Shown: one piece after another, positions 1,041 through 58,420 of the stretch
Layout of the letters: each line of letters starts with the position of its first letter
How positions within the stretch are numbered: the first letter of the stretch is position 1
Source of the DNA: Pseudomonadota bacterium
GTDB taxonomy: Bacteria; Pseudomonadota; Alphaproteobacteria; UBA828
Direction: 5' to 3'
Assembly (NCBI GenBank): GCA_027624955.1
Contig: JAQBTG010000002.1
Location: 24,694-88,693 of the forward strand
Length of the DNA: 64,000 bases
Position numbers and translations under genes: made by a program
The notes under the pieces: model-generated
What the model saw: only the letters and a program-made list of their open reading frames with translations
Told to the model about the DNA's origin: nothing
Database searches by the model: none

Positions 1041-1120
1041 GTCAGGCCCCAGGTCCTTGGACTTGTCAGGCCCCAGGTCTTTGGACTTATCAGGCCCCAG
1101 GTCTTTGGACTTATCAGGCC
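1041..1120. repeat. Perfect/near-perfect 24-bp tandem repeat, 3.3 copies (gtcaggccccaggtcYttggactt), in the intergenic region between the hyuB-like stop and the SDIMO alpha start.
   Basis: Units lie at 1041-1064, 1065-1088 and 1089-1112, with a partial unit at 1113-1120 that overlaps the hyuB-like stop codon. The spurious plus ORF 970-1239 reads SGPRSLDL x3 across it. Confidence 0.9.
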
Positions 1121-2961
1121 AATGCCGCGAGGCGGGATTGGCGGAGTTTGGTGGTGGCGCTGATGTCGACAGCGAGATCGTCGCGCGCCGGCGAGCCGGT
1201 GATGATCACGCCATAGACCGCTTCGGCCTTGGCGCGTGAGACATAGCGCTCCTGCACATCGTTGAGAACACGTTCGGTCTCGCGCGTCAGGGGGTCGCCG
1301 TAGCCGCCACCGCCATTGTCGACGGCGCGTAATCTATCGCCCGGCGAGAGATGGCAATAGGCATCGGTGGAATAAAACTCCTCGCTGCCGTCGGCGGCAA
1401 TCTTCATTTGGATGGCGGGCTGCGACGGCAAGCCGCCGAGCACGCCCTGCGGCACATTTTCCAAGCCGTTGGCGATATTGATGATCAGCATGGGTTCGAT
1501 GCGCGGCCCCATGATCACTTCCGACGCCGGGCCGCCGCGCCGCCGTCCGGCGCCGCATGAATCCTCCAGCGCGCGCACGCTTTCAACCTGGAACGGAAAG
1601 CGCTGTTCGTTGACCTCGATGCTGTCGCGGTAGACCAGCCCGGCGCTGACCGGATTGACCATGCCGTGCATGCCGTCATTGCGCGCTGAGGCGGGCATGC
1701 CGCCGGCCGACATGAACATCTGGTTCACATAGGGTGCGCCGCCGTTGCGCCAATCCTTGCCCGAGCACACGCCCGTGCCGGCGCCGTTGCACATATTGCC
1801 CTGGCTGAAGCCATAGCCGTCGCCGAGCTGAGCGAAGCCGGCCTGAATGGTATTGATGATGGTATCGGTCATATTGGTGGTGGCGACCGAGCAGCTATGC
1901 GGAAAGCGCGGAATGCCGGTGACGCAATTTTCGCGCAGCAGAATATCCAGCCGCCGGAAGCTGCCGGAATTGTGCGGAATGTCGGGATCGAGGCAGCAGA
2001 ACACCGCTTGCGCCGCCGACATGGTGGAGGTCGCCTCGGTCAGATTTAGTCCGGCATCGACGGAATCCGGATTGTCGCGCAGATCCACCTTGATCCGGCC
2101 GTCGGTGCTGTCGATATCGATAGCGACTTTGATCTGAATGCCGTCCGGCAGAAACGGCATGATCGGATCATGCACGCCGGTGGCGGAGATGGTGCCACCC
2201 GGCAGAGCGCGGATCGCCTCGGCCGTCCGTCGCTCGGAATAATCGAACCAGTCGGCGACGAATTTGCGCGTCATGGCCTTGCCGTATTTGCCGATGAACT
2301 CCTTCAGCCGGCGCTCGCCGATGCGGGCCGCGCCCATCGCCGCGAGATAATCGCCATACCATTGATCAGGCACGCGGATGCGCCGGCGGCACATGCGGAT
2401 GATATCCTGGTTGTCCTCATAATCGCTTTGCACCTGCACACAGGGAAAGATCAGCGCGCCTTCTTGATAGACGTCCTTGGCGGCGGCGAAATAGGTCGTC
2501 GGCTGGCTATTGCCGCAATCGGCCTGATGCGCCTTGACCGCCGCCGTAAAGAAATGCTCGCCCTCAAAAAATACCGGAATGAGAAAGGTATGATCCGCGG
2601 GGTGGCTGTTGCCGACATAGGGATCATTGTCGAGAAAGGCATCGCCCTCGCGAAAATCCGGATGATATTTCGCCATCGAGGCGGTTTGCAGATGCATGCC
2701 AAACACATGAATCGGCATCGCCTCGGCGACCGCCAGAACCTCGTCATCCGAGGTGATAATCGCGCAGGAAAAATCGCGCGCGATGCCGATCACCGCCGAG
2801 CGGGCGGAGAACAACACGGTGTTGGTCATCTCACGGCAGATCGCGTCCATGCGGTTGGCCATGATGGCGAGCAGCACAGAGTCGAACTGGCCGTCCTGGT
2901 CCGCCTGGCTCGTCTGGTCCGTCCCTGTACCGGACGCGGGATTGTTCTTGGATATAGCCAT
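1114..2961 (-). CDS. Hydantoinase B / 5-oxoprolinase family protein (HyuB-like, ATP-dependent amidohydrolase beta subunit).
   Basis: A 615-aa ORF with typical HyuB architecture and length. A GGGGAG RBS sits before the ATG, and the gene lies 12 bp downstream of the hyuA-like gene, so the two are translationally coupled. Confidence 0.85.
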   Translation of the reverse strand: MAISKNNPASGTGTDQTSQADQDGQFDSVLLAIMANRMDAICREMTNTVLFSARSAVIGIARDFSCAIITSDDEVLAVAEAMPIHVFGMHLQTASMAKYHPDFREGDAFLDNDPYVGNSHPADHTFLIPVFFEGEHFFTAAVKAHQADCGNSQPTTYFAAAKDVYQEGALIFPCVQVQSDYEDNQDIIRMCRRRIRVPDQWYGDYLAAMGAARIGERRLKEFIGKYGKAMTRKFVADWFDYSERRTAEAIRALPGGTISATGVHDPIMPFLPDGIQIKVAIDIDSTDGRIKVDLRDNPDSVDAGLNLTEATSTMSAAQAVFCCLDPDIPHNSGSFRRLDILLRENCVTGIPRFPHSCSVATTNMTDTIINTIQAGFAQLGDGYGFSQGNMCNGAGTGVCSGKDWRNGGAPYVNQMFMSAGGMPASARNDGMHGMVNPVSAGLVYRDSIEVNEQRFPFQVESVRALEDSCGAGRRRGGPASEVIMGPRIEPMLIINIANGLENVPQGVLGGLPSQPAIQMKIAADGSEEFYSTDAYCHLSPGDRLRAVDNGGGGYGDPLTRETERVLNDVQERYVSRAKAEAVYGVIITGSPARDDLAVDISATTKLRQSRLAALA

Positions 2962-5064: not shown

Positions 5065-5368
5065 TCCTGCTCTCCCGATTTCTTCATATTTGGCCGTGCG
5101 TACCACGCATTTTTAAGATGCTCGACGACCTTGTCCTTGGATTCGATCTTGCGCGAATTGGAGGCGGCGATCAAATACTCAAGCGCGTCTTTGGCAAAAC
5201 AGTCGAAATTATTTTTCGCCGCGCCGACGTCTAGGCTCCTCAGCCGCACGCCATCCTGTGACCAGGCCGTTTTTTGCGCTCGATCTCCAGCCAGCCAATA
5301 TTTTTAAAGCCTTGTTGGTGGCGGCCAGCTAACGTAGCAGCCCTCTGGATTGGGAAGGCGGCAAAATT

Positions 5369-6118
5369 ATGTTGAAGGATCGCGTGGGACTGGTGACGGG
5401 TGGTGCGTCCGGAATTGGGCGGGCGACGGTACTGGCCATGGCTGCGGCGGGGGCCAAGGTTCTCGTCGCCGATATCGATGAAGCGGGCGGTGAAGCGGTG
5501 GCGCGCGAAGTAACGGAGGCCGGTGGCGTCGCCGAGTTTCTGCGCGCCGATGTGTCTAACGCGGCAGATGTGAACGCCATGGTGGCGCGCGCATTGAGCG
5601 CCTTTGGCAGGCTCGATGCCGCCGTCAACAATGCCGGCCTCGAGGGCCCTGAGGCGCCGGTACAGGGACAGGACATGGCGCAGGTGCAGCGCGTGTTCGA
5701 TATCATGATTAACGGCGTCTATCTCGCCATGCAGGCTGAGATACCGGCCATGCTGGCTGGCGGCGGTGGCGCCATCGTCAATATGAGTTCGATTTGGGGC
5801 TTGTTCGGCTACGCCGATTGGTCGCCCTATATCACCGCAAAGCACGCGGTTTCCGGCATGACCAAAGCGGTGGCGCTTGAAGTCGCGGCCCAAGGCATCC
5901 GCATCAATGCGGTTGCCCCCGGACCGATCCACACGCCGCTCCTGCTGCGCCTGTGGGATAACGATCTCTCTGGGTCGGCGGCACGCGTGCCGATGCGCCG
6001 CATCGGCCAGCCCGAGGAGGTTGCCAATGCGGTCGTCTGGTTGCTTTCAGATCAATCCAGTTTCATCACCGGCCATATCCTGCCGATCGATGGCGGCATG
6101 CTGGCCGAGAAGGGCTGA
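5369..6118 (+). CDS. SDR family NAD(P)-dependent oxidoreductase.
   Basis: It carries TGGASGIGRA (the Rossmann TGxxxGxG motif), NNAG, and the catalytic S...YxxxK (YITAKH). It is paralogous to the SDR at 33551-34303. Confidence 0.9.
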   Translation: MLKDRVGLVTGGASGIGRATVLAMAAAGAKVLVADIDEAGGEAVAREVTEAGGVAEFLRADVSNAADVNAMVARALSAFGRLDAAVNNAGLEGPEAPVQGQDMAQVQRVFDIMINGVYLAMQAEIPAMLAGGGGAIVNMSSIWGLFGYADWSPYITAKHAVSGMTKAVALEVAAQGIRINAVAPGPIHTPLLLRLWDNDLSGSAARVPMRRIGQPEEVANAVVWLLSDQSSFITGHILPIDGGMLAEKG

Positions 6119-6414
6119 CCCGCGCTGCGTTGTGGGCCGAGCTGCGTTTGATCGTGCTCGGCGGCGAAGATGTTGGCGGGCTTCGTCACAGACTCGTTTA
6201 ACTGCCCGCCCGCACGCTAGATGATCGATCGTGGGAAGCGAGGGCTTCGACAGCTGCTCGCATTCATCCGGCCAGTTTAACCGGATCGGCGCCGCTGGGG
6301 CACTCGCGTTTGCGACAAAGCCTTATATAAAACCGGGGCTTACACTCCAGTAACGCTTGCTCCGACAGCGCCAAATCTGTCGCCGCACGAGCTGGCGATG
6401 CGCCCGACAGATTC

Positions 6415-6472
6415 AGAAGGCGCCTTCGTCTTGGAGGCCGTTGCATTGAAAACGTTGAGGTGGCTTCTGTAG
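6415..6472. repeat. Copy A of an imperfect ~58-bp direct repeat; copy B is at 11941-11998. The core is ggaggccgNtgcattgaaaacgttgNNgtggcttctg.
   Basis: By-eye alignment gives about 83% identity over ~58 bp, with a near-perfect 28-bp core. The two copies flank the lower-GC nhaA-nhaR-hflK'-kef block. Confidence 0.7.
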
Positions 6473-6736
6473 GCTTCACTTCTTGCCATGATGAAAAACG
6501 CCAACACACGCGTATTTGATGGCCGGTGCAAGTACATGGCGCCTGTGTTTATGCAAAGCTTCGATGCCATTATTGGCTATCAGAATCTCGCATTCATTTT
6601 CCAGCAACCGGATGTTGAGACCGCCTTTAAGTTAATCGTCTTGAACAACTAGAACTTTCTTCATAGCCTTACTTTCCACCCGAGGGAACGCATCCGATTG
6701 TCCCCCAGGTCATTAACTCCATCCGCGATCCAGAAT

Positions 6737-8137
6737 CTAGTCTTCCGCCTCTCCTGGCCTGCTAACTAGGTAGAGCCAAATGAATCCAGCCACGCCCGCC
6801 AGCAGGGAAGCGGCAATAATGCCCGTCTTGGCCACCAGCAACAAATCATTGCGCTCGCCAAAACCGAGCTGAGCGACAAATATGGACATGGTGAATCCGA
6901 TCCCGGCCAGCAACGACACACCAGCGATCTGGGTGAACCGCGTATTTTTCGGTAGTTCGGCCACACCCAGCTTCAGCACCAGCCAACTTGCCCCAGTGAT
7001 GCCAATGAACTTGCCCACCACTAGACCGAGCGACACACCGTGCATCACCGGATTGGTCAAAATTTCACCCAGCGAACCAGAAGATAGCGGAATGCCGGCG
7101 TTGGCCAAGGCGAAGATTGGAATTACGAAGTAGGCCACCGGCATATGCCAGGTATGCTCCAATCGCTGCAACGGGGCTTCAACGCTGTGCACACTGTTTT
7201 TCAAGGCCTGTACGACGGCACGCAACTCGATATTGGTCATGATGCTTTTCCCAGGTTTGTGGCTGGCATCAAAACGCCTTATGAGTTCTTTGACGTGCTC
7301 ACTGAAACGTGTCGGGTCGTACTTTGGTATCGCTGGGACCGATAGCGCTCCCAATATGCCAGCCAGAGTGGCGTGCACACCTGATTGCTGCATGGCGTAC
7401 CACATCAACACCGCGACAATAAAATAGGGCATGGTATTGCGGATGCCGACCAGATTGAAAGCCAGCAGCAAAGCGAAGAGACCGCCGCAGAGCGCTAGGG
7501 GACCAAACGCAATGGTGTCGGTATAGAATAACGCAATCACCATCACGGCACCCAGATCGTCTACAATCGCCAGAGCGACCAGAAAGGTGATCAAGGCCTT
7601 GGGCACCCGGCTTGCCAGCAAAGCCAGGGCACCAACTGCGAAAGCGATGTCGGTGGCCATGGGTATCCCCCATCCAGCCGCCGCGTCGCCTTGTGGGTTG
7701 AAGGCAAAATATATCAAGGCAGGCACAACCATGCCGCCAATTGCCGCCGCAATCGGCAGGATGGCATTTCGTAGTTTCGCCAGTTCTCCTACCAGCAACT
7801 CACGTTTAAGTTCCAATCCGACGACAAAGAAAAATAGCGCCATTAGGCCATCATTGATCCAATGGTGCAGGGTCATTTCCAGCGCCCAACTGCCGATGTC
7901 GAGGCTGATTAGGGTATGTACGACATGCTCATAGACGGAAGCCAACGGTCCGTTGGCCAGTACCAACGCGACGATTGCCATACACATCAGCAGTAAGCCG
8001 CTCGTGGTCTGGCGGTGAATAAACTCTTCAAACGGCGTGAGGATTTTGCCGAAACTTTTTTCCCAGGGAGCGTAATAAACGCCTCTTTTCATTTTGGGAA
8101 TACGGTTTGCTCCTGTGTTTTTATTTTTCATCACCAA
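6737..8137 (-). CDS. nhaA: Na+/H+ antiporter NhaA. The start could alternatively be the Met at 8092.
   Basis: The NhaA signature region HWINDGLMALFFFVVGLELKRE and a 12-TM-type hydrophobic profile are present. It lies immediately downstream of nhaR. Confidence 0.9.
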   Translation of the reverse strand: MVMKNKNTGANRIPKMKRGVYYAPWEKSFGKILTPFEEFIHRQTTSGLLLMCMAIVALVLANGPLASVYEHVVHTLISLDIGSWALEMTLHHWINDGLMALFFFVVGLELKRELLVGELAKLRNAILPIAAAIGGMVVPALIYFAFNPQGDAAAGWGIPMATDIAFAVGALALLASRVPKALITFLVALAIVDDLGAVMVIALFYTDTIAFGPLALCGGLFALLLAFNLVGIRNTMPYFIVAVLMWYAMQQSGVHATLAGILGALSVPAIPKYDPTRFSEHVKELIRRFDASHKPGKSIMTNIELRAVVQALKNSVHSVEAPLQRLEHTWHMPVAYFVIPIFALANAGIPLSSGSLGEILTNPVMHGVSLGLVVGKFIGITGASWLVLKLGVAELPKNTRFTQIAGVSLLAGIGFTMSIFVAQLGFGERNDLLLVAKTGIIAASLLAGVAGFIWLYLVSRPGEAED

Positions 8138-9023
8138 ACAGCGACTGACGAGCTGCCTCCACTATGGCGGAGACGACTGGGTGCTTGACTTGGCGCTCGA
8201 CGGAGATGGCGTAGAAATGCGCTTTCACCTCATTGACCCGGCCAATCACAGTCACCTGATACTGCCTCTCCACCTCTGCCTCGATAACAGCGGGCGCTAT
8301 GAAGATCCCGACACCTTCTTGCCCAAAAGCCTTCATCAGCGCGCTGTCATCAAACTCGGCAATTCTTTGCGGGTAGATGCGATGTTTGTTCAGCCACTGA
8401 TCAATACTGGAACGCAGTTGATTGCCGGTACTCGGAAACAGTAGCGGTGCGCCTTCCAGACACTGGGGAAAATCACCAATTAGCTTCTTTTTCAGTTTCG
8501 CTGTGGCAAAGAAGCTGACCGCGCTCTCGCCAAGTTTATGACTAAAACTTCGCGTGCTGACCGTGGGAGGAACAGGACTGTCGGCCAGTACCAAGTCAAG
8601 GCGGTGCACGGACAATTCTGCCAGCAAAGTATCGAGACCCGTCTCGCGGCAAATCATGCGTACTGGGTCCGGCATCCGCAGCGCAGGCTGAAGAATTCGA
8701 TGGGCGATGGACTTGGATAGCACGTCGACAACACCAACCCGAAACAATTGGGGGCGGTCGTCAGGCAGCCGATGAATCGTATTTTCCAACTCACCGCCCA
8801 GCGAGAAGATCTCATCAGCATAGCTCAATACAAGTTGCCCGGTCTCAGTGAGCTCCAAATTGCGGCCGACCCGGGAGAACAGTTTCACTCCCAGATGCTC
8901 CTCCAGCAAACTCAGTTGCCCGCTGATCGTTTGCGGTGTCAGGTTTAGCCGTTCACTGGCCCTAGAGACGCCGCCCTCCCTAGCTACCGACCAGAAATAA
9001 TGTAGATGCTTGTAGTTGATCAT
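8121..9023 (-). CDS. nhaR: LysR-family transcriptional activator NhaR. The start is probably the Met giving MINYKHLHYFW (9023); the longest ORF extends to 9089.
   Basis: The N-terminal MINYKHLHYFWSVAREGGVSRASERLNLTPQTISGQLSLLEEHLGVKLF resembles, by recall, E. coli NhaR (INYNHLYYFWHV...LTPQTITGQI). Its stop is adjacent to or overlaps the nhaA start. Confidence 0.85.
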   Translation of the reverse strand: MINYKHLHYFWSVAREGGVSRASERLNLTPQTISGQLSLLEEHLGVKLFSRVGRNLELTETGQLVLSYADEIFSLGGELENTIHRLPDDRPQLFRVGVVDVLSKSIAHRILQPALRMPDPVRMICRETGLDTLLAELSVHRLDLVLADSPVPPTVSTRSFSHKLGESAVSFFATAKLKKKLIGDFPQCLEGAPLLFPSTGNQLRSSIDQWLNKHRIYPQRIAEFDDSALMKAFGQEGVGIFIAPAVIEAEVERQYQVTVIGRVNEVKAHFYAISVERQVKHPVVSAIVEAARQSLFGDEK

Positions 9024-9052
9024 CGGAATACCATAGTTCGATAAATACGAAT

Positions 9053-9075
9053 AATACGTCATATATATTCGTATT
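9053..9075. promoter_or_regulatory. Candidate LysR-type operator (a T-N11-A-style palindrome, AATACG-N11-CGTATT) immediately upstream of the likely nhaR start.
   Basis: An inverted repeat aatacg tcatatatatt cgtatt lies in an AT-rich tract 30-50 bp upstream of the Met at 9023. Confidence 0.4.
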
Positions 9076-9410
9076 TTATTGAATTTCAAGGATGGCCACC
9101 ATAGTTGTTGTTGAAACTACAACGACAATGCAGCGGAGGGGTTGATACGGGCTGACGTCACCCCGGACATCTTTTGTCTGATCCCATTCAATGCGCAGTC
9201 ATGCCTAAAGTTGGCGGCGTACTTATTTCCAATATTGGCGATCACATTCAACGATTGCCTGCGAGGAAATCTCGTTTCGGCGCAGGCCGAGAACATTGTC
9301 GATAAGGTAAGATGATAGGGAAAATGCATCCGCATGACGGGAATTTTGGAAAAACGGGGCATGGTAAAGCCACGAATTATTTATAACTTGAGAGACGAAT
9401 AAACTGTTAC

Positions 9411-9656
9411 GTGGTCGGACCAACGTGGTGGCAACGGCAACGGCCCCTGGGGAATTTCCCAGTTGGGTCACGCCGTGGTGAGGGCGGTCGCGGCTCCGGC
9501 GGCGGTGGCCGACGACCAAATGGCGGTGGCGGACCGCAACCGCCTGACTTAGAAGAGGTGTTGCGACGCGGTCAAGACAAGGCGCGGCGCTGGATGCCCT
9601 CTATTCGGGGGCCGCGCGGCGTCATTATCTTAATTCTTGTCGCCATTCTATCGGAC
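9411..9656 (+). pseudogene. hflK: Truncated 5' fragment of hflK (about the first 82 codons: Gly-rich N-terminus, PPDLEE(V/L)LRRGQD motif, start of the TM helix), then non-homologous sequence and a stop.
   Basis: The translation ...GGGGRRPNGGGGPQPPDLEEVLRRGQDKARRWMPSIRGPRGVIILILVAIL resembles the HflK N-terminal region. The SPFH/band-7 domain that should follow is absent, and the ORF ends at 9722 after an unrelated tail. Confidence 0.6.
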
Positions 9657-9784
9657 GATTGCGAGGTAAATCGATTCCAATACCAGAGTCAATTTAGCGA
9701 TTATTTGGAAAAGAACTGCTGAGCGGGAGCGTGCGGCTCGGTGCGCCGTCGCGGCCGAGGAGATGCCCAGGGGGGCTAGATTCG

Positions 9785-11506
9785 ATGGATATTCCAGAGA
9801 CCCATCTTGACGAACTGCTCTTTGCCCTAGTGATCATCCTGGGGGCCAGCGCGGGCGCCATGGCTATCGCGAAGCGCTTCCGCTTAAGCCCTGTGATTGG
9901 ATTGTTCGCGACGGGGTTCGTTGTCGGGCCGTCGGTCCTGGGCATTACCCAAAACGTGAGCCAGCTTCGCGAGATTGCCGAGTTCGGCGTGGTGTTGCTT
10001 CTGTTCGTGGTCGGACTTGAGATGGCTCCGCGCAAATTGTGGGCGATGCGCACCCGGGTTTTCGGGTTGGGCTCGCTTCAAGTGGCGGTAAGCGGCGCGC
10101 TCCTGTTCGGCTTTCTCGTCGCCACCGCGCTGCCGTGGAACGTGGCGCTAGTCGTTGGCCTGGCGCTCGCACTGTCGTCTACAGCATTCGTCGCGCAGAT
10201 TCTTTCCGAGCGGGCCGAGCTGAACACCGAGACGGGGCGGACTAGCATTTCGATCCTCATCTTACAGGATATGGCGGTCGTTCCCTTGCTGGCGATGGTT
10301 CCGCTCATTTCGGAGGGCGCGCCGCAGATCGCGGGCGAGCCAATCTGGCTGCGCGCGTTGATGATCATCGGCGTCATAGCCATCGTGCTGCTGATCGGGC
10401 GCTTCGTCTTGCCGGTCTTGCTCACTTGGACGGCGAAGCGGCGCTTCATGGACGTGTTCGCCGTGCTCTCAATGCTTGCGATGTTAGCCAGCGCCTGGGC
10501 GATGGAGTTCACGGGGTTGTCCATGGCGCTCGGCGCCTTTCTCATCGGGGTGACGCTGTCGGTGTCGGATTATCGCCATCAGGTCGAGGCGGCGGTGTTG
10601 CCCTACAAGGGACTACTGCTTGGGCTGTTTTTTCTCTCGGTCGGCATGTCGATCGACATCGCGGTGATAAAGCAGGAGTGGGTGCGGGTGATCTTCAGCG
10701 TACTCGCTGTCATCGGAATCAAGATCGCGGTCCTAATCGTGCTATGCGCTGCATTTCGGGTCTCGCGTCGGGCGACGATCCGCACAGCGTTCCTGCTCTC
10801 GCAAAGCGGCGAGTTTGGTTTCGTGCTACTGGGTTCTGCGCTGGCGAGCGGCCTCGTGGGCGAGGACCAGTTCGCCTTCGCCCTTGTCGTGATTTCTGTG
10901 TCGATGGCGGCGACGCCGGTTTTCGTCAAGCTCGGCAACGCGCTTGCCGACTTACTAGAAAGAGCGGGGCGCACATCTGCCCACTCCACGGCGGCCGACT
11001 GGGGCGAGGAAAAATACGTCGTGGTGACGGGAATTGGCAGGGTGGGGCGGATCGTTTGCGATATGCTCAAGGCTTCTGACATCCCCTACATCGCCTTCGA
11101 TGTCGACATTGAGAAGGTGGTGCGGGAACGGAAGTTGGGCCACCATGTCCGCTTCGGTGACGTCAGCGACCCGCACGTACTGACCTCGGGAGAACTCGCT
11201 CGGGCTGCGGCGGCGGTAGTGACGCTGAACGACAAGCGAGCCTGCGAAAAGGTGGTTAGTGCGCTGCGCAATTTCTATCCAGAAATGCCTGTACATGTGC
11301 GCGTCTATAATTTCGAGGACCGAGACGCGATGCTGGAGCGCGGGGTCGTTTCGGCGATTCCCGAAACCGTGGAAGCGAGCCTCGAGCTCGGCGCGGACCT
11401 TCTGCAGCACCTCGGCATATCCGACTCTGAGGTCCAGGACTTGCTCGGTATATTACGCGCAGATGGCTACGCACGGATCCGTAGCGGCGAGGAGAGGGGG
11501 GGCTGA
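9785..11506 (+). CDS. Monovalent cation:proton antiporter-2 (CPA2) family K+/H+ antiporter with a C-terminal RCK/TrkA-N domain (KefB/KefC-like). The track ORF begins at 9731; the Met at 9785 (MDIPETHL...) is more likely.
   Basis: A ~12-TM Na+/H+-exchanger-type membrane domain is followed by VVTGIGRVGRIVCDMLK, the Rossmann GxGxxG of the RCK domain. Total length is about 573 aa. Confidence 0.85.
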   Translation: MDIPETHLDELLFALVIILGASAGAMAIAKRFRLSPVIGLFATGFVVGPSVLGITQNVSQLREIAEFGVVLLLFVVGLEMAPRKLWAMRTRVFGLGSLQVAVSGALLFGFLVATALPWNVALVVGLALALSSTAFVAQILSERAELNTETGRTSISILILQDMAVVPLLAMVPLISEGAPQIAGEPIWLRALMIIGVIAIVLLIGRFVLPVLLTWTAKRRFMDVFAVLSMLAMLASAWAMEFTGLSMALGAFLIGVTLSVSDYRHQVEAAVLPYKGLLLGLFFLSVGMSIDIAVIKQEWVRVIFSVLAVIGIKIAVLIVLCAAFRVSRRATIRTAFLLSQSGEFGFVLLGSALASGLVGEDQFAFALVVISVSMAATPVFVKLGNALADLLERAGRTSAHSTAADWGEEKYVVVTGIGRVGRIVCDMLKASDIPYIAFDVDIEKVVRERKLGHHVRFGDVSDPHVLTSGELARAAAAVVTLNDKRACEKVVSALRNFYPEMPVHVRVYNFEDRDAMLERGVVSAIPETVEASLELGADLLQHLGISDSEVQDLLGILRADGYARIRSGEERGG

Positions 11507-11940
11507 CGGTATGCGGTGGAACGTCACTCAAATTTGCGGCGGCGGTCGCACCCCAGGGCGCATCCCAGGGCAGCTTGACTGTTTGACCGGTATCGTTAGA
11601 TCGGCTCCTGGTACATCGGAACGACAATTTCCGAGACCATGCGCGGTAGCTCTATGCACCTGCGGGGGTTGTCAGACAAACTGATCTGGCGGATCTCGGC
11701 AGCAAACATCGGATCGTGCCGGCTCCACCAGAACCGCACCGTCTGGTGGCAAATGTCTATCCCACGCTCGAACGGCGGATCCTCAACCTGCCGCTACGAC
11801 AGCGGATAGCTGATGTACATCGTGACCGCGAGGCGGATCACCTTGGGTGAGCTGTCGAAATAGCGGAACGGATTTGCCGTCCGCCCGGGCTATGCGTCGC
11901 CCACGCCGCCATCAAGCCGGTTTGGTCCGACAGAGCCCAT

Positions 11941-11998
11941 AGAAGGCCACCTGATCTCGGAGGCCGCTGCATTGAAAACGTTGCTGTGGCTTCTGCCG
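11941..11998. repeat. Copy B of the ~58-bp direct repeat (see 6415-6472). It overlaps the annotated GTG start of the fused oxoprolinase-like ORF.
   Basis: The sequence agaaggccacctgatctcggaggccgctgcattgaaaacgttgctgtggcttctg aligns with copy A. Confidence 0.7.
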
Positions 11999-14900
11999 CT
12001 GCCGGCACTTATATTGTGGTCGCTGTCAGCCATTTTGTGGCCTATTTGGGCAACGGCAATTTCGGAGTGTTACGACGTGGGCGAACGAACGGTGATGTTG
12101 CTGTGATTCTCGGCGTAGACGTTGGCGGCACCTTCACCGACCTGCTGCTTGCCGATCCCAAGACCGGGCGCTTCGAGATTGCCAAGGTGCCCTCTACGCC
12201 AGCCGATCAGTCGGACGGGTTCATGGCCGGCATCCAGGCGCTCGGCGCCGATCCGAGCACACTCGATTCAATCATTCACGGCACGACCGTGGGCACCAAT
12301 GCGGTGCTTGAACGGAAGGGCGTGCGCTGCGGGCTGATCACCACGCGCGGCTTTCGCGACACGCTGGAGCTTGGCCGGCGCACGCGGCCCAACCCTTGGG
12401 GCATGACCGGCCATTTCGAGCCGCTCGTGCCGCGCGACCGCCGGATTGAGGTGAGCGAGCGCATCGACGCCTCGGGCCGCGTGGTGACAGTGCTCGCAGA
12501 AGACGAGGTGCGCGAAGCCGTGGAGACGCTGCGCGAAGCCGGCGCGGAAGCGCTCATCATCCATTTCATTCACTCCTACCTCAATCAGGACCACGAGCGC
12601 CGCGCCGGTGAAATCGCGCGCGAAACCTGGACCAACGGGCATATCACGCTGGGCTCTGAGGTCTTGCGCGAAGTACGCGAGTTCGAGCGCGGCAGCACGG
12701 CGGCGCTCAACGGCTATATCCAGCCCATCATGACGCGCTATCTCGGCCATCTCCAACAGCGTCTGCGCGATGCCGCGTTTGGCCATGAATTGCTCGTGAT
12801 GCAGGGCAATGGCGGCATGATGAGCGCTGCGACCGCTGGTGAAAAAGCGGTTCATACCGTGATGTCGGGTCCGGCCGCGGGTGCAATTGCCGCGGCGCAT
12901 CTCGGCAGCGCCGCGGGCTTTCCGAACGTGATCAGCTGCGACATGGGTGGCACCAGCTTCGACATCGCCATCGTAAAAAACGGCGTGCCAACGACCACGA
13001 CCGAGAAGGACATCAGCTACGGCATGCCGCTCCGCGTGCCGATGGTCGATATCCAGACCATCGGGGCAGGCGGCGGCAGCATTGCCCGCGTTGATACCGG
13101 CGGCATCCTTCGCGTCGGGCCGGAAAGCGCGGGCGCGACACCCGGCCCGATCTGCTACGGGCGGGGCGGCACCGAGCCCACCGTGACCGATGCCAACCTC
13201 CTGCTCGGGCGGATCGACCCGGATACGATCGCGGGCCTCAATACCGGCCTTGGCGCAGACGCGGTGCGGCGTGCCATTGCCGAGAAGATCGGCAAACCGC
13301 TGGGGCTCGACGCCACCGAGGCGGCAGCGGCGATCATCCGCGTGGTCGATCATCAGATGGCGGGTGCGGCCAGGCTGGTCTCGGTCGACAAGGGAAACGA
13401 CCCACGAGAGTTCGCGCTGTTCGCATTCGGTGGCGCGGGTCCGATGCACGCGACGGCGATCGCGCGCGAGCTCGGCGTGCCGCATGTGGTGGTGCCGCGC
13501 TATCCCGGCATCACCTCGGCGCTCGGCTGTGTGCTCGCCGATGTCCGCCATGATTTCGTGCAGACCCTGCACACACCGCTCGAAGACGTGGATGTTGACG
13601 AGGCGGACCGCATTCTTGCCGACCAAGCTCACGAAGGGCGCGAGGTATTGGCGCGCGAGGGCGTGGCGGTCACGGCGGTCGAGGTCAGCCACGAGGCCGA
13701 TCTCTTCTATCGCGGCCAAAGCCATATGTTCCGCGTCGCGGTTGAGAGCCCGGGCTTCTCACTGGATGCAACGCGCGAGCGCTTCGCCGATCTCTACCGC
13801 GAGCGCTTCGATATTCTTTTGCCTGAGATGCAGCCGATCCTGGTGAGCCTCCGGACCACGATTCGCGGCGTCCGCACCTCGCCCGAGCTCACCTTCACGC
13901 CGAGCGCTGCTAAGAACGATCTGGCGGCCGCGCGAATCTCAACCCGCCCGGTCTTTTTCGATGGCGCTTGGCACGAGACGCCGATCTATGAACGCGAGCG
14001 CCTGCCGGCGGAAGCTGAGATCACCGGCCCCGCCGTTATCCAGCAGCTCGATACCACCATCCTCATTGAGCCGGGTTCGACCACGCGCATCGACCGCGCG
14101 GGCAACCTGATCGTCGAGGTGCCGCAAGCCGCCGCACAGAAGATCGCTGGGGCGCTAGATGCCGTGACCCTCGCGGTTATTCAAAGCGGTCTCGAACAAG
14201 TTGCGAGCGAGATGGACCTGGTTCACCAGCGCACCTCGTTCTCGCCGGTGATCTCCGAGGCCTACGACCGATCGAACGGGATTTACGACGCCGTAACCGG
14301 CGACATCATTGCCCAGGGCGAACTTGGGCTGCCGATCTTCCTTGGCGTCATGCAATCGACGACACAAGCCGTGATCGCCGAGCGCAAGGATTTGGAGCCC
14401 GGTGACATCATCCTGATCAACGATCCGTATAAGGGCGGCACGCATCTGATGGACGTCAAGATGGTGCGCCCTTTCTACTATAAAGGCAGGCACTGGGCGT
14501 ATCTCTCCAACACGGGGCATTGGCCCGACACTGGCGGCATGGTGCCGGGCGGCTTCTCCTCCGAGGCCACTGAGATCCAGCAGGAAGGCCTGCGTCTGCC
14601 CCCGGTAAAACTTTATCGGCGCGGCGTGATCGACCAGGACATCTTGCAAATCGTGCTGGCAAACATCCGCGTGCCAGACGAACGTGTCGGCGACATCCGC
14701 GCCCAGGTGGGCGCTCTTTCGGTCGGCGAAAAACGGCTTACGGCACTGCTCGACAAATACGGCGAAGCTACAGTCAGCGCAGCCATCGAGGCGCTCAAGG
14801 ACCGCTCCGAACAGCGCATGCGCGCGCATATCGAGACCATCCCCGACGGCGCATATGTTTTTTCCAGTTATATGGACAGCGACGGTGTCGATGACGCGCC

Positions 14901-44298: not shown

Positions 44299-45057
44299 AT
44301 GTTGTTCGATCTCACAGGAAAAGTGGCACTGATTACCGGAGCGAGCCGCGGCGTTGGCGCGGCGATTGCAGCGGGCCTTTCGCAGCACGGCGCGACCATT
44401 ATCCTGAATGGCCGCAACCCGGAAACTCTGGAACAAACCGCCACAGAACTGCGCGCTATTGGTGGCCAGGTTCACACATCCGCCTTCGATGTGAGCGATG
44501 CCGAGGCGATCACAGCGGCGGTTGGCGAGATCGAGGCGACGATCGGGCCGGTCGATATATTGGTGAACAATGCCGGCGTTCAACACCGTCAATTGCTGAG
44601 CGAATTGCCCGAAGCCGATTGGCGGCGCGTGCTCGAAATCAATCTGACCGCACCGTTCTTGATGGCGCAATCGGTGGCGCGGGGCATGCTGCGGCGGAAG
44701 TCGGGAAAAATTATCAATATCTGCTCGTTGACCAGCGAAATTACCCGGCCCGGTATCGCGCCTTATACGGCGGCCAAAGGCGGCTTGAAGATGCTAACGA
44801 AATCTATGGCGGTGGAATGGGCAAAGGACAATGTGCAAGTCAACGCGATTGGTCCGGGCTTTTTGATGACGGAGATGAACAAGGTTCTGGCGGAGGACGA
44901 AAAGTTTAATGAATGGGTTTGCGGGCGGACACCGGCTGGGCGATGGGGCACACCGGAAGAAGTGGCGGGCGCCGCAGTCTTTCTCGCATCCGAGGCGTCA
45001 AATTACATTACCGGTCAAGTGATCTATGTCGATGGCGGCTTTCTCTCCACCATGTAA
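44299..45057 (+). CDS. SDR family oxidoreductase (gluconate-5-dehydrogenase-like).
   Basis: It has VALITGASRGVG, NNAG, and S...YTAAKG. Confidence 0.85.
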   Translation: MLFDLTGKVALITGASRGVGAAIAAGLSQHGATIILNGRNPETLEQTATELRAIGGQVHTSAFDVSDAEAITAAVGEIEATIGPVDILVNNAGVQHRQLLSELPEADWRRVLEINLTAPFLMAQSVARGMLRRKSGKIINICSLTSEITRPGIAPYTAAKGGLKMLTKSMAVEWAKDNVQVNAIGPGFLMTEMNKVLAEDEKFNEWVCGRTPAGRWGTPEEVAGAAVFLASEASNYITGQVIYVDGGFLSTM

Positions 45058-57444: not shown

Positions 57445-58278
57445 ATGATGAAACACAGAAAACTGGCCGCCACCACGGTGCTGGCTCTAATGATCGGCGC
57501 GGGAATTTCCACAGCAGCCATGGCCGATACGGCGGTCATCAAAATGAAATTCGATGAAGACAGCGGCGATCTTTATTTTGAGCCGGCCAAGGTCACTATC
57601 AATCCCGGCGATACCGTGGTCTGGCTGCAAGATGATGTCGACAACGAGCACAACGTGGCTGCCTATCCCAACCTCATTCCGGAAGGCGTGCAGCCCTTTG
57701 AAAGTCAGATGATGACGCGGGTAGGCGAAAGCTGGAGCATGACCTTCGACAAGGTAGGCAGCTATTTCTATCACTGCCATCCGCATGAGGCGGCGGGCAT
57801 GAAAGGGCTGATCGTGGTCGGTCGCGAATCTCTGCCGGAGGAATTCCGAAAAGCCAGAGCGGGTGATATGTCGCATGACCATGGCGACGGCGATATGGAC
57901 GACATGAAGCATGGCGATAAGGACGGCATGAAGCATGGCGACAAGGACGGCATGAAGCATGGTGACATGGACGACATGAAGCCTGGCGATAAGGACGGCA
58001 TGAAGCATGGTGACATGGACGGCATGAAGCATGACGACATGGACGGCATGAAGCATGACGACATGGACGGCATGAAGCATGGTGACATGGACGGCATGAA
58101 GCATGACGATAAGGACGGCATGAAGCATGACGACATGGACGGCATGAAGCATGACGACATGGACGGCATGAAGCACGGCGACGATGATGATCATCACCAA
58201 GATGGTGACAAAAAGGAGAACAAGATTATGGAGGATGGGCATGGCCACGATAATGACCATGGCGATCACCACGATTAG
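57445..58278 (+). CDS. Exported type-1 copper (cupredoxin: plastocyanin/pseudoazurin/amicyanin-like) protein with a C-terminal tail of 12 tandem 8-aa DGMKH(G/D)D(M/K) repeats.
   Basis: A signal peptide is present. The cupredoxin ligand pattern His...Cys-x2-His-x4-Met appears in FYHCHPHEAAGMKGLIVV. Residues from about 148 to 250 are a Met/His/Asp repeat array. Confidence 0.75.
   Translation: MMKHRKLAATTVLALMIGAGISTAAMADTAVIKMKFDEDSGDLYFEPAKVTINPGDTVVWLQDDVDNEHNVAAYPNLIPEGVQPFESQMMTRVGESWSMTFDKVGSYFYHCHPHEAAGMKGLIVVGRESLPEEFRKARAGDMSHDHGDGDMDDMKHGDKDGMKHGDKDGMKHGDMDDMKPGDKDGMKHGDMDGMKHDDMDGMKHDDMDGMKHGDMDGMKHDDKDGMKHDDMDGMKHDDMDGMKHGDDDDHHQDGDKKENKIMEDGHGHDNDHGDHHD
57886..58192 (+). repeat. 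24-bp tandem repeat array (about 12 units of gacggcatgaagcatgRcgaYaWg) encoding the DGMKHxDx repeats.
   Basis: Direct inspection shows highly regular 24-nt periodicity. The spurious minus-strand ORFs 57487-58296 and 57771-58169 are its reverse-frame translations (MLHAV / MPSMSSCF repeats). Confidence 0.9.
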
Positions 58279-58420
58279 GGCGCGCCGGACGGTCAAGGGC
58301 GCCTTCGGCTAGGCGCTCCGCATTAGAGAAGATAACTGTGAACGGCAATTTTTTTGACAGCGAGGTGGCGGAGCTAATCGCTCTATGCCCCGCACCGCCA
58401 GCGGCCTTGATTGATCGGCT

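Follow-up and report, generated by a model that had tools for sequence, protein, structure and literature searches.

The DNA analysed here (64,000 nucleotides of the alphaproteobacterial contig JAQBTG010000002.1, hereafter the window) contains a 5.5-kb block of antiporter genes, with nhaA, nhaR, a 5' stub of hflK and a kefB-like gene, which is flanked by two short imperfect direct repeats, termed copy A on the left and copy B on the right. Each copy is a junction between the end of an insertion sequence (IS) of the IS6 family and its flank, and the block is therefore bracketed by two directly oriented IS6-end/flank junctions. The locus is transposon-associated, an old degraded insertion or recombination product; the repeats are probably duplicated junctions of a dead IS6-family (IS26-like) end and the neighbouring DNA, with the block representing the decayed remains of a pseudo-compound transposon or translocatable unit. 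The original prediction had proposed a cassette insertion with a duplicated or captured target sequence and no transposase, and had named an old degraded insertion as a fallback, which was essentially right, given the decayed IS6 relic that lies beside copy B.

The repeats as IS6-end/flank junctions

A repeat search of the window recovered a 55-nt direct repeat pair with 84% identity and a spacing of 5526 (6415-6469 and 11941-11995), and gapped local alignment lengthened the match leftwards, with a 3-nt indel, to 6404-6469 against 11927-11995. The 28-nt core, TGCATTGAAAACGTTGNNGTGGCTTCTG, which is better conserved than the remainder of the 55-mer, occurs at exactly two sites of the window at up to 3 mismatches (expected 0.00, from 100 shuffles), and the 16-nt centre of the 55-mer has no further copies there, so that the imperfect repeat pair first noticed in the sequence is real. 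Other, independent assemblies of this organism (ENA MEHR18-1 scaffolds and NCBI GCA_027592445.1) reproduce the junctions base for base, with copies A and B on two contigs (L005 and L006) and copy A on two others (L007 and L008), which shows that the repeat is not an assembly artefact. The 55-mer also has an imperfect dyad around GCATTGAAAACGTTGC, and a hairpin fold is possible in copy B.

Further evidence is found immediately to the left of the 55-mer. In copy B, 3 nt separate the 55-mer from the left terminal inverted repeat (IRL) of an IS6 element, whose outermost 11 nt (11927-11937) belong to the match, a position set by alignment to intact IS6 elements, and in copy A the 11 adjacent nucleotides (6404-6414, CCCGACAGATTC-like) align to this same IRL tip. 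Given that the similarity between the copies reaches the outermost bases of the IS6 left end, the repeat unit spans an IS6 end and its flank and does not represent native target DNA. The duplicated target sequence of the original prediction does not survive this result, as the repeat has 55-69 bp, is 16% diverged, and takes in the tip (11 nt) of the IS6 terminal inverted repeat.

An IS6-family relic beside copy B

The 480-bp stretch beside copy B (11507-11985) had been described as gene-free and as looking like decayed coding sequence; its minus strand encodes ~65 residues from the N-terminus of an IS6-family transposase. The remnant is matched by the NCBIfam profile NF033587 (transpos_IS6) with an E of 2.2e-10, over profile positions 5-63 of 202 and with 40.6 bits where the curated cutoff is 125, and in tblastn it shares 61-68% identity with annotated IS6 transposases from the plasmids of Novosphingobium, Sulfitobacter, Sphingopyxis, Mesorhizobium and other alphaproteobacteria. 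When four full-length relatives were compared with the window by tblastn, the relic was the sole transposase match (E ~1e-25, residues ~5-75 of 235). The profile and tblastn matches contradict the earlier statement that no transposase is present.

In the relatives, a terminal repeat of the form GGnnCTGTCAGA precedes the start codon by some 60 bp and another lies at the far end, and the DNA of the relic is colinear with these intact elements, running from the IRL through the leader to codons 1-~66, with the homology ending at ~11686. Directly after this point comes the right terminal inverted repeat (IRR), GGGGTTGTCAGACAAACT, in the orientation of a right end. It is the top site of the whole window for a position weight matrix (PWM) of IS6 ends which was built solely from external sequences (12 ends of 8 related plasmid-borne elements), with 18.3 bits against a best of 17.7 across 30 shuffled windows, and it agrees with the right end of a Pseudorhodobacter element (L032) at 15/16 positions. 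The relic thus has the clade-conserved short terminal inverted repeats starting with GG.

Its coding part has lost the start codon (ATG to ACG), has a 6-nt deletion and one in-frame stop, and carries an internal deletion which fuses codon ~66 to the last ~20 nt of the element, with the loss of the DDE domain. The relic therefore measures 273 bp with a decayed open reading frame (ORF), against an IS6 norm of ~700-890 bp with a single transposase ORF. Judged by its profile match, colinearity and ends, the segment at 11665-11937 appears to be a deletion derivative of an IS6 element which has kept both ends and is homologous to the family, yet is not an intact member of it. No 8-bp target duplication surrounds the relic, whose flanks are CACCTGCG and CATAGAAG; IS6 copies are expected to lack this duplication following cointegrate, deletion or recombination events (PMC7986276). 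The coordinates of all the features are given in Table 1.

Table 1. Features of the bracketed block and its edges, in window positions.
Feature	Position	Strand	Evidence
Captured fragment, 880 bp, with intact SDR gene (5369-6118)	5294-6173	+	nucleotide identity to native loci
Solo IS6 left-end motif, GGCGCTGTCGGAGCAAGC	6355-6372	-	12-mer, 17-mer consensus, PWM
42-bp spacer, solo IRL to copy A	6373-6414	.	direct sequence reading
Repeat copy A (55-mer, 6415-6469)	6404-6469	+	repeat search, gapped alignment, core pattern
nhaR-nhaA module	6552-9139	-	Pfam, nucleotide identity to relatives, GC3
NhaA	6737-8137	-	Pfam
LysR regulator (nhaR)	8121-9089	-	Pfam
hflK 5' fragment, frameshifted	9411-9655	+	weak Pfam HflK_N; ends before band-7 domain
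kefB-like CPA2 K+/H+ antiporter with TrkA_N	9785-11506 (9731-11506 in the Pfam analysis)	+	Na_H_Exchanger E 1.9e-56, TrkA_N E 3.5e-15
IS6-family element, internally deleted, 273 bp (MITE-like relic)	11665-11937	-	profile, tblastn, colinearity, end PWM
Relic right end, last ~20 nt, GGGGTTGTCAGACAAACTGA (IRR, GGGGTTGTCAGACAAACT, 11665-11682)	11665-11684	-	PWM
Relic transposase codons ~5-67, behind a 5' leader	11686-11874	-	profile, tblastn
Relic IRL, GGCTCTGTCGGACCAAAC	11920-11937	-	colinear with IRLs of intact relatives
Repeat copy B (55-mer, 11941-11995)	11927-11995	+	repeat search, gapped alignment, core pattern
Unique spacer, 108 bp, copy B to true hydantoinase A/B start	11996-12103	+	homologue starts, DNA homology limit
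SDR, short-chain dehydrogenase/reductase; GC3, GC content at third codon positions; MITE, miniature inverted-repeat transposable element.

The left edge of the block

On the right side of the block the relic retains both ends, and on the left side what is seen is the 11-nt IRL tip abutting copy A together with a solo IRL motif of 17-18 nt, both oriented like the right copy, the outer end of the left IS being lost. The solo motif, which ends 42 bp to the left of the 55-mer of copy A, is like the IRL beside copy B at 14/16 positions and shares its orientation. In the 64 kb, the 12-mer CTGTCRGNNCAA is found solely at this motif and at the genuine IRL (expected 0.18), and these two are also the only sites with no more than one mismatch to the 17-mer consensus GGNNCTGTCRGANCAAA. 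It is from their position and mutual similarity, and not from their PWM scores, that the two left-end sites derive their weight.

The spacer between the solo motif and copy A contains a perfect 9-bp palindrome, AATCTGTCG...CGACAGATT, which consists of IS6-tip-like sequence; these weaker motifs fall outside the top 25 PWM sites. Four motifs that looked like IS6 ends by eye (6404-6414 taken alone, 6373-6386, 6309-6322 and 12029-12042) are not top PWM sites and were set aside as unproven; among them, 6404-6414 is the sole one with support, through its alignment to the IRL tip of copy B. Matches that are GGCTCTGTTGCAAA-like occur at a frequency within chance. Elsewhere in the window, the second-best PWM site for an IS6 end (GGTGCGGTCAGATTGATT, 44637-44654 on the minus strand, 15.5 bits) has no transposase similarity nearby and is probably a chance match.

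A patchwork of gene fragments

The interval from 5.3 to 12.1 kb is a patchwork that joins a captured SDR fragment to the mobile nhaR-nhaA module, the hflK 5' stub and kefB, with sharp homology breakpoints at 5294, 6173, 6552, 9139, ~9655 and 12100. The gene content that had been read from the sequence was borne out by Pfam for NhaA, the LysR regulator, the CPA2 antiporter with its TrkA_N domain and the hydantoinases on both sides of the block, and for the hflK fragment by a weak HflK_N match (9411-9722, E 2.9e-4, 21.2 bits, below the curated cutoff of 22), in which a glycine-rich N-terminus is followed by ...PQPPDLEEVLRRGQDKARRWMP....

The SDR fragment also holds 75 bp of upstream DNA and the 55-bp 3' end of a foreign convergent gene of the Npun_R2479 family. 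It is 82.4% identical in nucleotides to another contig of the same metagenome-assembled genome (MAG; GCA_027592445.1, contig JAQCKN010000027.1, here L015) and 81-82% identical to a conserved native locus in the relatives L018-L024. The genome thus has two SDR paralogues with 86% protein identity, one at 8849-9598 of L015, in the conserved native context (Pyr_redox-SDR-Npun_R2479-inositol phosphatase), and the displaced one in the window, which behaves as an outgroup, with 83-84% identity to the native copies against 88-92% among the latter. Judged by these identities, the fragment was copied from, or is related to, the native SDR locus. The idea that the two flanks form one interrupted metabolic locus was not borne out, the left SDR gene being itself part of this 880-bp captured fragment.

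The nhaR-nhaA module recurs in unrelated contexts. Its segment at 6719-9139 has 79.5% nucleotide identity to L028-L030, where it lies in a chromosomal context next to pheST (one lineage), and the segment at 6552-8132 is 86% identical to L025, where it lies among IS256 and IS21 transposase genes; the 185-bp tail downstream of nhaA (6552-6736) is ~86% identical to L025 9395-9580 and ends abruptly at 6552. NhaA proteins at 80-88% identity are scattered over alpha- and gammaproteobacterial MAGs, while no close relatives of kefB were found in the metagenomes of the Joint Genome Institute (JGI). The low GC that had been ascribed to the whole block is confined to nhaA and nhaR (GC 0.54 and 0.52, GC3 0.63 and 0.59), whereas the composition of kefB is typical of the window (GC 0.61, GC3 0.77).

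At the right edge, the true start of the fused hydantoinase A/B gene is the GTG at 12104 and not 11986, with homologues of 1245-1256 aa that begin (V/M)ILGVDVGG, which places copy B upstream of the gene and not inside it. In the orthologues of this gene, with 80-90% amino acid identity, the DNA homology begins at 12100-12104 and the upstream DNA differs in each relative, with no antiporter block found upstream of the hydantoinase gene in any of them. Taken together with the unrelated contexts of nhaR-nhaA and its distinct composition, this upholds the view that the block is a secondary arrival or rearrangement and does not reflect native gene order. On the left side, the small ORF after copy A (orf54, 6488-6652), first put forward as a 49-codon ORF that could be a severed gene 5' end, is not such a severed end; it has 54 codons, starts 19 nt downstream of copy A and is matched by no family, and the DNA shared with a relative covers just its last ~33 codons. 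This ORF and another of 64 aa on the nhaA tail are probably spurious. A response-regulator 5' fragment on the minus strand at 6552-6693 was also considered and was dropped, with no Pfam or tblastn match.

Several of the relatives' loci (L013, L018-L020 and L025-L027) are rich in other types of IS, namely IS256 (Transposase_mut), IS3 (rve), IS630 (DDE_3), IS21 (IstA/IstB) and IS4/IS5 (DDE_Tnp_1), and this group of organisms seems to be generally IS-laden. Upstream of window position 1, in L005 1-5500, the left hydantoinase A/B pair has before it a cluster for a multicomponent monooxygenase (Phenol_Hydrox, MmoB/DmpM, TmoB, YHS) as well as a cupin and an amidase; combined with the numerous hydantoinase/acetone-carboxylase-like paralogues of the window, this looks like a catabolic island.

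Two other repeat regions were observed in the window. A tandem repeat of 24-bp units at 1035-1120, in the 3' part of the Hydantoinase_B gene (1114-2961, minus strand), encodes PDKSKDLG-like units on that strand, one of which (1038-1062) is missing in L005, a scaffold that is otherwise 99.8% identical, so that the number of tandem copies varies between strains. At ~57700-58330 on the plus strand, an ORF whose N-terminal part is cupredoxin-like by eye only (…YFYHCHPHEAAGMKG…) has ~17 tandem 24-bp units that encode Asp/Met/His-rich repeats of the DMDGMKHD type, followed by a His-rich tail, and this repeat region could be a metal-binding extension.

A model of formation and its difficulties

IS26-like elements form cointegrates only, and their translocatable unit, consisting of one IS and the adjacent DNA, may recombine with a resident IS. 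The transposition of IS6-family elements proceeds by cointegrates with duplications of 8 bp, their transposons are "invariably" flanked by direct IS repeats (pseudo-compound transposons), and circular translocatable units integrate beside a resident copy (PMC7986276). For the duplication of the 55 bp outside the IS, we infer a route from these properties, in which a circular unit of IS6 plus passenger, already bearing the 55-mer of copy A, nhaA-nhaR, the hflK stub and kefB, would have joined a resident IS6 beside the 55-mer of copy B, upstream of the hydantoinase cluster. The join may have been made either by transposase-mediated targeted integration or by RecA-dependent recombination in the shared IS/55-mer homology. 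Alternatively, and with the same outcome, the unit may have undergone duplication in situ, after which a deletion left no more than the 55-mer of one copy. Both IS would then have decayed, the right one to the 273-bp relic with both ends and the left one to terminal fragments, and the two 55-mers would have drifted to 84% identity. The structure is immobile today, and the repeats are without demonstrated function.

A number of points weigh against this origin of the block from an IS6-borne unit. No known IS6 reaction alone duplicates 55 bp outside the element, and the model needs either a pre-existing second junction of IS6 and 55-mer or an extra deletion, neither step being documented; both routes also require one more rearrangement, which would have to break at the right edge of the 55-mer (6469/11995). 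The left IS is seen as short motifs alone, with no transposase similarity to the left of the solo motif in tblastn, and the PWM scores of the two left-end sites (12.9 bits for the solo motif and 13.4 bits for the IRL beside copy B) are at the level of the best chance site, the mean top score of a shuffled window being 13.3 bits. The 42-bp palindromic spacer on the side of copy A has no explanation in the junction model. Beyond the locus itself, no IS6 relics lie beside the nhaA module in relatives, nor at the SDR or hydantoinase loci, and neither an empty site nor an intact sister IS6 was found; the contigs with the locus are 99.8-99.9% identical, and all four SDR-bearing contigs contain the block.

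Competing explanations

The 55-mer may instead be a lineage-specific dispersed repeat, small and palindromic, like a MITE or a repetitive extragenic palindromic (REP) element, beside two copies of which IS6 elements inserted independently by target preference. The imperfect dyad with its possible hairpin in copy B and the 16% divergence of the copies, common in dispersed repeats, would agree with this, and some IS of other families target REP sequences. However, the copy count within the genome, which covers the window and 19.6 kb of L015, gives two copies in the former and none in the latter, and this argues against the generic REP-like element that the original prediction had itself named as the finding that would undo it. 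Among 185,579 species-representative genomes the core gave just two matches, chance ones in Bacteroidota without extended similarity, and it is absent from JGI metagenomes and viral contigs (0 in each); blastn of the 55-mer against plasmids gave nothing significant, and ~420 kb of related loci, relatives included, gave 12-13-mers only. Folding is no better than that of shuffled sequence (minimum free energy z from -1.06 to +0.41 for copies A and B on both strands, against dinucleotide shuffles). Site specificity is not known for IS6-family elements (PMC7986276), and an IS tip at a near-equal offset in both copies would be a rare outcome for two independent insertions, all of which makes a dispersed repeat unlikely. 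A somewhat smaller probability still is given to a short templated patch, in which an IS6-end/flank piece of ~66 bp was copied once to a site 5.5 kb away by break repair or template switching, the bracketing being accidental and the block never a transposon. Just 66-69 bp are common to the copies, with arbitrary boundaries on both sides, and on the A side the IS amounts to 11 nt beside the 55-mer, past which the DNA is unrelated; both points favour a patch. Such a patch would leave unexplained both the separate and better IRL motif in the same orientation 42 bp further left and the mosaic of imported fragments in the bracketed DNA, and the 16% divergence would demand that it be very old.

The insertion of a ~5.5-kb cassette with a duplicated or captured target sequence of ~58 bp, as first proposed, does account for direct repeats that bracket a block foreign to this position in relatives. 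It is now very improbable, given that the repeat holds part of an IS terminal repeat and so postdates the insertion of the IS, that the SDR fragment and the IS6 motif place the left boundary of the imported DNA beyond copy A, and that duplications made by transposases are short and initially identical, with 8 bp in the IS6 family (PMC7986276). Just as improbable is a selected cis element, be it an operator, a promoter, a leader RNA or a recombinase site, in front of two plus-strand ORFs, even though orf54 and the hydantoinase A/B gene start 19 and 108 nt downstream of their respective copies, the 28-nt core is conserved above the remainder, and IS6 ends form hybrid promoters with flanking DNA (PMC7986276). 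Rfam gave no match over 6100-12200 at E up to 1, neither repeat region has a sigma-70-like promoter, and no significant structure was found, the one weak terminator-like hairpin (11994-12007) being within chance expectation; moreover, orf54 is no credible gene and the orthologous hydantoinase genes are without such an upstream sequence. The ends of Tn3-family elements and of IS1, and dif-like sites, were also considered, with no convincing alignment to the 55-mer. There is, finally, a slight chance that the IS6 end and the 55-mer travel together, either as an extra subterminal or external module or through site-specific insertion beside a structured 55-bp motif, in which case the duplicated flank would reflect an undescribed trait of the IS6 lineage rather than a historical accident.

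Comparison with known systems

The decayed junction structure favoured here resembles the IS26/IS6 pseudo-compound transposons and translocatable units such as Tn4352, Tn6023 and Tn610 (PMC7986276) in that the passenger, of a few kb, lies between direct IS6 ends, the individual IS lacks the 8-bp duplication, and a mosaic of gene fragments makes up the surroundings. It differs from these units in that both IS copies are dead, reduced to a 273-bp relic and to terminal fragments, in that ~55 bp outside the IS end are duplicated, beyond the canonical mechanisms, and in that cation/proton antiporters of an environmental alphaproteobacterial MAG take the place of resistance genes as passengers. The antiporter unit as a whole was not found anywhere else among species genomes, JGI metagenomes and plasmids, and the whole locus has no close plasmid relatives. 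Two MITEs of the IS6 family, of 227 and 336 bp, are known from ISfinder (Varani et al. 2021, PMC7986276). Like these, the relic keeps both terminal repeats, has most of its interior deleted and is of similar size; unlike them, it retains ~65 decayed transposase codons, is seen as a single copy and has no target duplication, and is best regarded as a deletion derivative rather than a demonstrated mobile MITE.

The 55-mer is short, intergenic and imperfectly palindromic, with diverged copies, as are the REP, BIME and RIME repeats, but it has two copies, both fused to IS6 tips, with no wider distribution in the collections searched and no significant folding. It likewise shares with transposon target-site duplications the placement of direct repeats at both edges of an inserted block, but such duplications are short (2-14 bp) and initially identical, in contrast to a repeat of 55-69 bp that is 16% diverged and is partly IS sequence.

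Significance

The locus adds a further case to a known kind, being an old IS6/IS26-type mosaic with dead IS copies, and is not a new class of element. A puzzling long target duplication without a transposase is replaced by an ordinary explanation, and no new biological question is opened by the locus, although neither the doubling of the 55 bp outside the IS nor the palindromic 42-bp spacer is explained by the mosaic. For annotation, the lesson is that short direct repeats around compositionally odd blocks should be checked for IS terminal motifs and also for transposase stubs of 60-70 codons, which are missed by gene callers and by Pfam.

Elements of the IS6/IS26 type are best known for building antibiotic-resistance regions in clinical bacteria. 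In this uncultured environmental alphaproteobacterium, IS6 elements appear to have shuffled fragments of ion-transport and catabolic genes and then to have decayed.

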